A stretch of DNA of 64,000 bases, from NCBI RefSeq assembly GCF_030013205.1, contig NZ_CP122648.1. One strand, given 5' to 3'. Positions 10,635-11,447 of the stretch are shown in pieces (position 1 is the stretch's first letter; each line of letters begins with the position of its first letter). The translations under genes were made by a program, and so were the position numbers. Origin of the DNA: Escherichia coli. GTDB lineage: Bacteria; Pseudomonadota; Gammaproteobacteria; Enterobacterales; Enterobacteriaceae. The notes beneath the pieces are model-generated. The model saw only the letters and a list, made by a program, of their open reading frames with translations, had not been told where the DNA came from and did no database searches.

Positions 10635-11215
10635 GACTATAATCCTTTATAAATTAGAAAGGTTATTAATGAGGAAAATATAGGTTTGAATCTGATATTA
10701 ATTCCGCTATGGAGATTACCATAGTTAGAGATGACTTAGCTTGTTATTAATATTAAATACTGATTAAGTAAAACTTAAATCATACATTTTCATTATATAT
10801 TAAGATGCGTATACCTGGATATTTGTTGTATATCGTTGTGAATAATAATTTTTTTGTATGAGTTGTGGTGAAAAAATGAACATTCATTGACAAAAGTTTA
10901 CGTATGATATTGTAAGGTGGTAAAGTATATTTATTAAAACGAGTAGGGACGCAAGAATCGTGAAGATATAATATATATCTAGAGGTGCTTATTAAGTTTT
11001 ATTATTAATTAGTAATGTTTTATCGGGGGATAATATATATTAATAGTCTTGGTTGTTCTTTTTTTAACCAGATATGGTATATAATACAACACTTACTATG
11101 ATCGAAATCATATACTTGATCCAGAATTATGCGAGTATATGAATGTATTCAACGATGGATATGTGAAATTTTAACGCTAAATGTTTAGTAATGTTAAATT
11201 TTGAAGGTGAAAAGG

Positions 11216-11386
11216 ATGTTTATTGCCTGGTACTGGATTGTATTAATTGTTCTACTGGCTGGTGGCTATTTTCTTCATCTTAAACGTTACTGTAAAGCTT
11301 TTCGCCATGACAGAGATGCGCTGTTAGCTGCCCGAAGTAAATTAGATAAACGCTCCGATAAAGAAGTGTTTGAAAAGCATCAATAA
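11216..11386 (+). CDS. Hypothetical small membrane protein (56 aa; one TM helix plus basic tail)
   Basis: ATG preceded by GAAGGTGAAAAGG; hydrophobic FIAWYWIVLIVLLAGGYFL then charged C-terminus; lies in AT-rich region upstream of the fimbrial operon; not recognised. Confidence 0.3.
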   Translation: MFIAWYWIVLIVLLAGGYFLHLKRYCKAFRHDRDALLAARSKLDKRSDKEVFEKHQ

Positions 11387-11447
11387 TACCTTTAATAACG
11401 ATACAGATGTTGCCTTTAGCAATGGGCAACATCTGTCATTATCGTCT

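Follow-up and report, generated by a model that had tools for sequence, protein, structure and literature searches.

Yqi fimbriae, also described as extraintestinal pathogenic Escherichia coli (ExPEC) adhesin I (EA/I), have been reported only in ExPEC (PMC2771359), and the Yqi and Yqi-like operons are mutually exclusive and differently positioned (PMC3559732). The small protein YqiD has been followed in K-12, where VanOrsdel et al. 2018 detected a chromosomally tagged YqiD-SPA (sequential peptide affinity) fusion by immunoblot and yqiD was positive in a tetracycline ribosome-profiling screen (PMC6001520). Expression of yqiD differs among E. coli isolates, and the differences are associated with cis variants and validated with a reporter (bioRxiv 10.1101/2025.06.10.658842). 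The two systems meet in the DNA analyzed here, an 813-bp intergenic gap at positions 10635-11447 of a 64-kb stretch of E. coli DNA (the window; contig NZ_CP122648.1). The best overall explanation, held with a probability of about 85%, is that the gap consists of two back-to-back functional units, a fimbrial regulatory region on the left and a yqiD cassette on the right. Earlier work has already described the gene, the fimbrial operon, and both alternative locations of the operon. Added here are the naming of an unnamed allele as YqiD, the range of its family and its pairing with zupT, a sharp-edged haplotype, and a promoter model with a repeated dyad.

The gap is bounded exactly by the fimbrial major-subunit gene (10071-10634, minus strand), at its start codon, and by zupT, at its stop codon. 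Its GC content is 29.6%, compared to a window mean of 50.7% with a standard deviation of 4.1% for 813-nt windows, and it is the lowest-GC 813-nt stretch in the whole 64 kb. An initial annotation of this DNA had called the gap extremely AT-rich relative to its surroundings, which is correct, and had noted in it an AT palindrome, an open reading frame (ORF), and a stem-loop; together these features are far beyond chance. The same annotation likened the gap to H-NS-silenced fimbrial promoters. This reading fits only the left 460 bp, where the support for it is indirect; the right ~350 bp form a separate conserved yqiD cassette that is present with or without the fimbrial operon, and the AT-rich 120 nt upstream of yqiD are the promoter and leader of that gene rather than fimbrial control DNA. 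In the proposed arrangement, the first unit (10635 to ~11095) would be the divergent control region of the chaperone-usher operon for Yqi fimbriae (ExPEC adhesin I), and the second (11097-11447) would be a yqiD cassette ancestral to Enterobacteriaceae and independent of the fimbriae. A megablast search of complete E. coli genomes matched the entire gap to strain O139:H1 W13-16 with 100% identity. The coding and 3' elements on the right are as follows.

11216-11386, plus strand: yqiD, window-type allele (WP_001296421.1), a predicted single-pass small membrane protein of 56 residues with 66% identity to K-12 YqiD (b4756)
11403-11436, unstranded: a perfect 12-bp hairpin that separates the stop codons of the convergent yqiD and zupT genes (arms 11403-11414 and 11425-11436, 10-nt loop)
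11448-12221, minus strand: zupT, a ZIP-family metal transporter gene convergent with yqiD (NCBIfam NF003243 and the PGAP annotation)

The ORF starts with the ATG at 11216 and ends with the TAA at 11384-11386, and its 56 codons are preceded by the Shine-Dalgarno (SD) sequence GAAGGTG (11203-11209), 6 nt before the ATG, in agreement with the good SD first ascribed to it. The K-12 gene in the equivalent place, also convergent with zupT and also 56 codons long, is yqiD (b4756, YP_009518818.1). The window protein, MFIAWYWIVLIVLLAGGYFLHLKRYCKAFRHDRDALLAARSKLDKRSDKEVFEKHQ, aligns with K-12 YqiD, MFIAWYWIVLIALVVVGYFLHLKRYCRAFRQDRDALLEARNKYLNSTREETAEKVE, at equal length and without gaps, and 37 of the 56 residues are identical. 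The K-12 annotation at the equivalent place, the residue identity, and the common length identify the window ORF as an allele of yqiD. PGAP and RefSeq label the window protein a 'hypothetical protein', and a literature search found YqiD without an assigned function. Searches of Pfam, NCBIfam, and PADLOC returned no family for it, and a profile search of PDB sequences gave only insignificant matches (E ≥ 0.04). The YqiD family profile retrieves this family alone, with 21 cluster representatives and a best E of 1e-30. One caution applies to the identification as an expressed protein: all of the expression evidence comes from the K-12 allele, which differs from the window allele at 19 of 56 residues.

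Residues 2-22 of the window protein are hydrophobic, residues 23-33 (KRYCKAFRHDR) contain five K/R, and the tail has 11 K/R compared to 6 D/E, consistent with the single transmembrane (TM) peptide with a basic tail that was originally noted. The positive-inside rule applied to hydropathy and charge predicts a protein that spans the inner membrane once, with the N-terminus outside and the C-terminus in the cytoplasm. AlphaFold2, run with 36 family members, modeled one helix over residues 3-55, with a block-mean predicted local distance difference test score of 86-89 over residues 1-20, a stretch that spans the TM segment. His21 and Cys26 are invariant in a seven-sequence alignment of Escherichia and Citrobacter; most, not all, of the distant members have a Cys at position 26 or 29. 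The alignments place the window allele in the family pattern, an N-terminal MFIAWYW helix followed by KRYC(K/R)AFR(Q/H)DRDAL.

The window and K-12 alleles of yqiD were compared by the Nei-Gojobori method, which gave proportions of synonymous and nonsynonymous differences of pS = 0.72 and pN = 0.23. Codons 1-37 had a pS of 0.66 and a pN of only 0.10, corresponding to an omega of ~0.06, and the last 19 codons evolve fast with a pN of 0.47. The constrained part comprises the TM helix and the KRYC(K/R)AFR(Q/H)DRDALL juxtamembrane segment. These values show that the yqiD frame is under purifying selection, which settles the question of a spurious ORF. The initial annotation had left the choice between a small regulatory or membrane protein and a spurious ORF; it is the small membrane protein that stands.

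The distribution of the two alleles was determined by megablast against 5,426 complete E. coli genomes. The window region was found in 994 and the K-12 version in 4,433; one chimeric genome is in both lists, and the two haplotypes together cover all 5,426 genomes. Of the 994 window-type genomes, 993 have the yqiD half of the gap (11096-11447) at ≥95% identity, and WP_001296421.1 is identical at the protein level among strains whose intergenic DNA is just 83 to 92% identical. Relatives beyond E. coli were collected by a word-indexed search and an exhaustive profile search that reached down to ~27% identity. All of them have the form MFI(A/S)W(Y/F)W followed by (K/R)Rx(C)x(A)(F/Y/C)R(Q/H)(D/E)R(D/E)A. 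A species scan, using one genome per species, located 40 loci in Escherichia, Citrobacter, Salmonella (arizonae and diarizonae), Intestinirhabdus, Enterobacter, Kosakonia, Phytobacter, and Pseudocitrobacter. The ORF was intact (51-74 residues) with a convergent zupT directly downstream in 42 of 43 loci, the two genes being separated by -15 to +77 nt, and ribB lies upstream of yqiD wherever the flank reaches that far. The window has this family arrangement, with yqiD on the plus strand at 11216-11386 and zupT on the minus strand from 11448, and with the Yqi operon inserted between ribB and yqiD.

There are two ARRANGEMENTS: the K-12 order is zupT, yqiD, ribB, ubiK, ygiL-yqiGHI, glgS, and the window order is zupT, yqiD, the fimbrial operon, ribB, ubiK, and the glgS region. 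Only ~18% of E. coli genomes have the Yqi operon in the ribB-yqiD slot, and these include the identified B2/ExPEC strains. In Citrobacter rodentium and C. amalonaticus (L006, L008), assT-dsbL-dsbI fills the same slot. The occupation of the ribB-yqiD slot by different gene clusters marks it as a recurrent insertion site; direct ribB-yqiD adjacency is the common state and is probably ancestral. The assT-dsbL-dsbI arylsulfotransferase cluster also occurs after ygiD in B2 E. coli (L002, L003, L060) and is mobile in this neighborhood; the window lacks it, and ygiC-ygiB come after ygiD. Insertion sequences were seen at the locus in two strains. In FCI23 (L004, H30), IS1 and an adjacent deletion have eliminated the 5' half of yqiD together with the usher and major-subunit genes, and in Z22-2 (H15), IS1 lies inside the intergenic region.

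The window-type allele is part of a hyperdivergent segment with sharp edges. Only 45% of the third codon positions of yqiD are identical to K-12 (55% differ), compared to 17 differences in 258 (6.6%) for zupT. Such divergence of yqiD is unusual within one species. The last 150 nt of zupT are 100% identical to K-12, which places the beginning of the hyperdivergent segment exactly at the zupT stop codon. The other edge is the ribB stop codon: ribB is 98% identical to K-12, and its terminator differs from the first base on. This terminator is the following feature.

5628-5654: terminator hairpin AAAATGCCGGGGTGTTCCCGGCATTTT lying between ribB and the fimbrial adhesin gene, which are convergent; unrelated to the K-12 ribB terminator

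Since this hairpin is unrelated to its K-12 counterpart, the left edge of the exchanged block coincides with the ribB stop codon. The Escherichia representatives found in the species scan (E. albertii, E. whittamii, and two further species) carry the K-12-like allele, and the nearest relative of the window YqiD, with 80% amino acid identity and a pS of 0.55, comes from a mosaic locus (L009, a Logan contig of SRR7371274). In that mosaic, YgiL is 97% identical to K-12, ribB is 89% identical to E. coli, and zupT is just 78% identical. The simplest reading is that the block of Yqi operon, yqiD allele, and hairpin probably entered an E. coli lineage by recombination from a distant relative, and that the crossovers probably fell at the ribB and zupT stop codons. 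A chimeric yqiD was found at 4001-4171 of locus L013 (E. coli LR890262.1) and in strain Z1323CEC0015 (H55); it joins a window-type N-terminal half to a K-12-type C-terminal half, which locates a recombination breakpoint inside the 171-bp gene. Locus L013 has no fimbrial operon at either position. A plasmid or phage origin was rejected: tblastn against plasmids matched only mislabeled chromosomes.

The cassette closes with the hairpin between the convergent stop codons. The initial annotation had described a 12-bp stem-loop shared by the yqiD and zupT 3' ends; the stem is perfect and serves both ends, but it lies one base to the right of the position then given, at 11403-11436. The two strands fold with calculated energies of -25.1 (plus; z = -7.3) and -23.7 kcal/mol (minus; z = -7.1). 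A stem of 12-13 bp is kept with differing sequences in Escherichia and in most Citrobacter and Salmonella loci. The arms are ACAGATGTTGCC and GGCAACATCTGT in the window and CAGAAGTTGTCC and GGACAACTTCTG in K-12, where a T-to-A change is paired with an A-to-T change and each arm has a matching one-base insertion. Compensatory substitutions and paired insertions of this kind preserve the pairing in K-12, in other Escherichia, and in Citrobacter. The 3'-end structure is common to both genes and is likely either a bidirectional terminator or a 3' stabilizer. Weighing against a terminator, the window stem has no U-run, and no terminator was called in 10500-11600; the tails past the stem are CAUUAUCGUCUUU on the plus strand and AUCGUUAUUAAAG on the minus strand, and the K-12 copy has UGUUGUUUUU on the yqiD side. 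The window structure thus combines the stable, G+C-containing stem of a canonical intrinsic terminator with the absence of its U-tract.

The left unit belongs to the fimbrial operon, whose relevant features are listed here.

10071-10634, minus strand: Yqi (ExPEC adhesin I) major-subunit gene, ygiL/yqiL-like (NCBIfam NF007276, 345 bits; PGAP annotation in an identical genome)
10635-11095, unstranded: hypervariable Yqi regulatory region, 25.6% GC, not in the K-12-type haplotype and without K-12 homology upstream of yqiD
10754-10797, minus strand: conserved promoter core TATAAT..AATGTAT..TTTAAGTTTTACTTAATC, a candidate -10 element and fimbrial transcript start identified in alignments
10964-10980, unstranded: AT palindrome with 7-bp arms AGATATA and TATATCT around ATA, a candidate site for a fimbrial regulator

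The major-subunit gene is the first gene of the operon (5660-10634), which has the order subunit-usher-chaperone-adhesin and sits directly beside the regulatory region, between ribB and zupT. The major subunit is 99% identical to the avian pathogenic E. coli (APEC) O1 subunit and 60% identical to K-12 YgiL; for the adhesin the corresponding values are 90% (APEC O1) and 37% (K-12 YqiI). The regulatory region was matched by megablast in just 462 of the 994 window-type genomes, mostly with 80 to 90% identity. Two blocks stand out from this variation. Alignment shows that the 44-nt core at 10754-10797 is common to all three Yqi sub-lineages and to the upstream region of K-12 ygiL, and the palindrome is invariant across the three sub-lineages despite its diverged flanks. 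The initial annotation had picked out this palindrome, AGATATAATATATATCT, correctly, but its position is 10964-10980, one base to the right, and it is not a perfect 17-mer.

The composition of the left unit fits the AT-rich, curved-DNA type associated with H-NS: TpA steps exceed the window average 3.2-fold, and A4/T4 tracts exceed it 2.4-fold. In K-12, genomic systematic evolution of ligands by exponential enrichment (SELEX) assigned both an RpoD 'constitutive promoter' and an H-NS mark to the spacer between yqiC (ubiK) and ygiL (PMC3946193). In CFT073, overproduction of TosR induces the Yqi subunit gene with a log2 fold change of 5.3; TosR belongs to the PapB family of regulators and, by the authors' prediction, binds AT-rich DNA and opposes H-NS (PMC5956150). 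Silencing of 10635-11095 by H-NS is plausible on these grounds, and most likely H-NS or similar nucleoid proteins would silence the Yqi region and PapB-type regulators would open it. A point on the other side is that the H-NS nucleation motif (TCGATAAATT-like) is not enriched, with one match at two or fewer mismatches in 581 bp, equal to the window-average density. Two switch types were ruled out: there are no long-range inverted repeats in the region that could form an invertible fimS-like switch, and the fimbrial part has no pap-like GATC pair, the sole GATCs lying in the yqiD promoter.

A different explanation of the left unit is that its AT-richness merely marks imported DNA and a relaxed spacer, whose only function would be that of a basal fimbrial promoter, without specific silencing or other regulation. 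Its hypervariability and its place in a seemingly horizontally acquired haplotype agree with this, as do the lack of nucleation-motif enrichment, of the long repeats of an invertible switch, and of pap-type GATC sites. A relaxed spacer does not account for the two blocks (10754-10797 and 10964-10980) that remain invariant amid diverging flanks, for the RNA polymerase binding and H-NS mark of the homologous K-12 spacer, or for the strong induction of the Yqi subunit gene by an overproduced PapB-family regulator. This explanation is unlikely, with some weight left to it, and the left unit is taken as a fimbrial regulatory region.

The conserved sequence upstream of yqiD was then divided into the following elements.

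11097-11112, unstranded: dyad TATGATCGAAATCATA with the core ATGAT-N4-ATCAT, which contains GATC; a candidate operator or activator site with an invariant 14-mer
11130-11138, plus strand: predicted extended -10 element TGC-GAGTAT, in which TG, A(-11), and T(-7) are invariant or nearly so (T55, G56, A59, A62, and T63 of alignment A5)
11143-11164, plus strand: predicted 5' hairpin of the yqiD leader, AUGUAUUCA/UGGAUAUGU, from a minimum free energy fold and covariation; suggestive only
11165-11215, plus strand: A/U-rich leader with the SD GAAGGTG, marked by sequence conservation

Homology between the two haplotypes, and with Citrobacter and Salmonella, starts ~120 nt upstream of the yqiD ATG. The 119 nt upstream of yqiD are 82% identical between the window and K-12, which is above the coding region, though synonymous sites there are saturated. 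In an upstream alignment of 21 loci from five genera, the 14-mer ATGATC(A/G)AAATCAT (11098-11111 in the window) is invariant in all 21, including loci of Escherichia, Citrobacter, Salmonella, and Intestinirhabdus. TG at 11130-11131, A at 11134, and AT at 11137-11138 are likewise invariant or nearly so, and in the leader the same holds for much of TTTTAACG.TAAATGTTTA.T.ATGTTAAAT and also for AAGG.T.AAAAGGATG.

Extended -10 promoters are recognized by the signature TG-n-NANNAT. Its conservation here predicts a yqiD transcription start near 11145, and a start at that position puts the dyad center (11104.5) at -40.5/-41.5, the class II activator position, in a promoter without a -35 hexamer. The dyad itself, TATGA-TCGAAA-TCATA at 11097-11112, has the TGA-N6-TCA core of CRP/FNR-type sites. 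The yqiD promoter may accordingly have an activator-dependent class II geometry, with the dyad at about -41, an extended -10 element, and no -35 element. The order of the proposed cassette would be dyad and extended -10 promoter, a leader of ~70 nt that opens with a hairpin, the SD, yqiD, and the strong 3' hairpin.

Several observations weigh against this promoter model. A rival -10 element, TATACT at 11111-11116 (TATAAT in K-12), shares bases with the right arm of the dyad, and its use would make the dyad a repressor operator; it is less conserved than the extended -10 element. A generic sigma-70 scan picked neither -10 model and found no more promoter-like sites than in shuffled sequences. 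CRP half-sites are GTGA and FNR half-sites are TTGA; both half-sites of the dyad are ATGA in all species aligned and match neither. A CRP chromatin immunoprecipitation sequencing list from enterotoxigenic E. coli has no site at this locus (PMC4287617). The yqiD orthologs of Kosakonia and Phytobacter lack the dyad and have a different upstream motif.

Literature searches with the dyad sequences found just an unrelated CRP site at ppiA/tsgA for the yqiD dyad and none for a second copy at zupT described below, and papers on YeiL give no binding motif. Other regulators were considered and rejected. NikR has the same TATGA half-site but an N16 spacing, and Fur, Zur, NarL 7-2-7, RcsB, and LysR-type boxes are excluded by spacing or sequence. 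The Kosakonia and Phytobacter motif is CTACTTATAAAGTGGTA, usually following CATTGAAA, and holds a canonical-looking TTGAAA-N17-TAAAGT (L047, L048, L050, L053-L055, L058, L015).

The conserved 120 nt could instead act mainly as RNA, as a riboswitch, a thermosensor, or a leader bound by a small RNA or protein. The leader is at least 82% conserved where synonymous sites are saturated, there is an A/U-rich stretch before the start codon with GGA directly preceding the ATG, and the 5' hairpin shows some covariation: 77% of the alignment cells are paired compared to 22 to 56% in slid controls, with 11 double-change cells compared to 4.0 ± 1.8 in shuffles. Against an RNA role, RNAalifold over the leader returned no consensus structure, the single-sequence fold has a z of only -1.4, an Rfam search of the leader at permissive E-values gave only noise, and the C. 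freundii group has lost the GGA. The dyad, which is the most invariant element, is moreover a DNA-type palindrome upstream of any plausible start. A mainly RNA-based function is improbable, and a promoter followed by a leader is the preferred interpretation of these 120 nt.

The core of the yqiD dyad recurs once, upstream of the neighboring transporter gene.

12272-12285, unstranded: second exact dyad ATGAT-N4-ATCAT, 51-64 nt ahead of the zupT ATG in the intergenic region of the divergent zupT and ygiD genes

The 64-kb window contains exactly 2 copies of ATGAT-N4-ATCAT, compared to 0.06 expected. A TGAT-N4-ATCA core is present upstream of zupT in 21 of 28 sequences from Escherichia, Citrobacter, Salmonella, Enterobacter, and Kosakonia, usually as C-ATGAT-GAAG-ATCAT-CAG inside a longer conserved block (GAAGAACTCAGATAACCATGATGAAGATCATCAGTTATTTTGA in most genera). 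The repetition hints at one regulator for both yqiD and zupT. This must be set against the position of the zupT-side dyad in an ATG/ATC-rich low-complexity run, and against Reg-Seq data for the zupT promoter, which report an RNA polymerase site only and no regulator site (PMC7567609). A Fur-box-like sequence, AATGAGAATGATTATCATAA, lies directly before the zupT SD in Kosakonia, Phytobacter, Enterobacter sp. kpr-6, and one Citrobacter (L045, L047, L048, L053, L055, L058, L015, L011), and is not in the region upstream of E. coli zupT. It suggests that zupT may be under metal-dependent control in the genera that have it.

MgtS, MntS, AcrZ, KdpF, and SgrT are single-pass small inner-membrane proteins that tune transporters. 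YqiD, like other single-pass small proteins, would most likely bind and tune a larger membrane protein, and this is the weakest step of the proposed mechanism. The invariant adjacency and the shared dyad make ZupT the first candidate partner. These are also the only ties between the two: ribB and ygiD are equally syntenic, and yqiD and zupT are convergent and are not co-transcribed. The odds that YqiD binds or tunes a larger inner-membrane protein, with ZupT as the first candidate, are accordingly rated as low. A more elaborate version is a long shot. In it, YqiD would be a dedicated ZupT partner whose cytoplasm-facing His/Cys helix tunes metal uptake, both genes would be controlled by one dimeric regulator of CRP/FNR-like geometry that recognizes ATGAT-N4-ATCAT, and a foreign yqiD would have been swapped in with the Yqi operon in ~18% of genomes. 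If this were true, an adhesin and a metal-uptake module would travel as one haplotype in that fraction of the species.

A promoter-like element on the minus strand, TTAACA-N18-TAAAAT (11197->11168), lies within the yqiD leader and matches 10 of 12 consensus positions. It is conserved across genera, and the K-12 form is TTAACA-N17-TATAAA. In the window it would point toward the fimbrial operon and could drive an antisense or read-in transcript. The systems tisB/istR-1, shoB/ohsC, and zorO/orzO provide the comparison for a further alternative, in which yqiD is the toxin of a type I toxin-antitoxin-like pair restrained by a divergent small RNA from this element. The conserved hexamers are compatible with such a pair, as are the size of the protein (<60 residues) with its one hydrophobic helix, and the predicted starts at ~11145 (plus) and ~11161 (minus) would give a short antisense overlap in which the small RNA covers the first ~17 nt of the yqiD leader. 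Typical type I toxins differ from yqiD, which is single-copy and strictly syntenic over eight genera. Beyond the dyad, the sequence past the putative minus-strand start is unconserved and has no terminator in the window, and the same bases are explained as the yqiD leader. A type I pair is therefore rated as very improbable, and the element is left as part of the yqiD leader. That the ORF arose by chance in AT-rich intergenic DNA and makes no protein has a practically negligible probability, since its shortness, its lack of a Pfam, NCBIfam, or PADLOC family, its RefSeq name, and the rare frameshifted versions in databases (P0011, P0060, P0061) are outweighed by its orthology to the experimentally detected K-12 YqiD, its intact state at the equivalent position in 40 species of eight genera, a pN far below pS with saturated synonymous sites, and the retention of at least 80% of the 352-bp yqiD half in 990 of the 994 window-type genomes, a conservation pattern that refutes it as far as sequence evidence goes.

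The first consequence of these results is for annotation: about one-fifth of complete E. coli genomes carry an unnamed 'hypothetical protein' that can be called YqiD. Carriers of the window-type allele include the species type strain, Nissle 1917, and APEC O1, and one further carrier strain is presumably ST131 (sequence type 131). YqiD becomes a better-defined target among the uncharacterized small membrane proteins, being universal in complete E. coli genomes and a neighbor of zupT in eight genera, and a link of YqiD to ZupT and metals, together with a regulator that binds the dyad, is offered as a concrete hypothesis. The sharp-edged haplotype shows an adhesin operon and its neighbor that were probably exchanged as a block between ribB and zupT. 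Elsewhere in the window, 24141-24620 ranks second in AT-richness (28% GC). This stretch lies within or beside an IS3-family element; the element interrupts a TonB-dependent siderophore receptor gene, leaving two pseudogene halves, and an IS200-type tnpA is close by.

Comparison with known systems places the fimbrial unit closest to the Yqi/EA-I cluster of APEC IMT5155, APEC O1, and CFT073 (PMC2771359, PMC3559732), with which it shares the four-gene order subunit-usher-chaperone-adhesin and the ribB-zupT location; the window promoter region is just ~85% identical to that of APEC O1. The K-12 Yqi-like operon ygiL-yqiGHI has homologous genes and the common 44-nt upstream core, but it occupies the ubiK-glgS interval instead of the ribB-yqiD slot. 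The SELEX-predicted K-12 promoter, TCGATA-17-TATAAA, maps to a stretch of 19 nt with no counterpart in the window.

The predicted yqiD promoter resembles class II CRP/FNR promoters, whose sites center at -41.5, often with an extended -10 element, for example galP1. Both have a TGA-N6-TCA dyad, and the window promoter is predicted to have a TGn extended -10 element, no -35 hexamer, and, with a start at 11145-11146, a dyad center at -40.5/-41.5; the window dyad differs in having an A at the base that discriminates CRP from FNR in both half-sites. YqiD resembles MgtS, MntS, AcrZ, KdpF, and SgrT in size, in its one N-terminal TM helix and charged cytoplasmic tail, and in having a transporter gene as its neighbor. 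It differs from them in sequence, with no similarity detected, in the convergent arrangement of yqiD and zupT, and in having only a candidate partner. Among known systems, the yqiD unit is closest to K-12 yqiD. The upstream neighbor of yqiD is ribB in K-12 and the Yqi fimbrial operon in the window, and the 19 residues that differ lie mostly in the C-terminal 19, but residues 1-11 are identical, the juxtamembrane motif is near-identical, and the promoter, leader, and 3' hairpin of the two genes are homologous.

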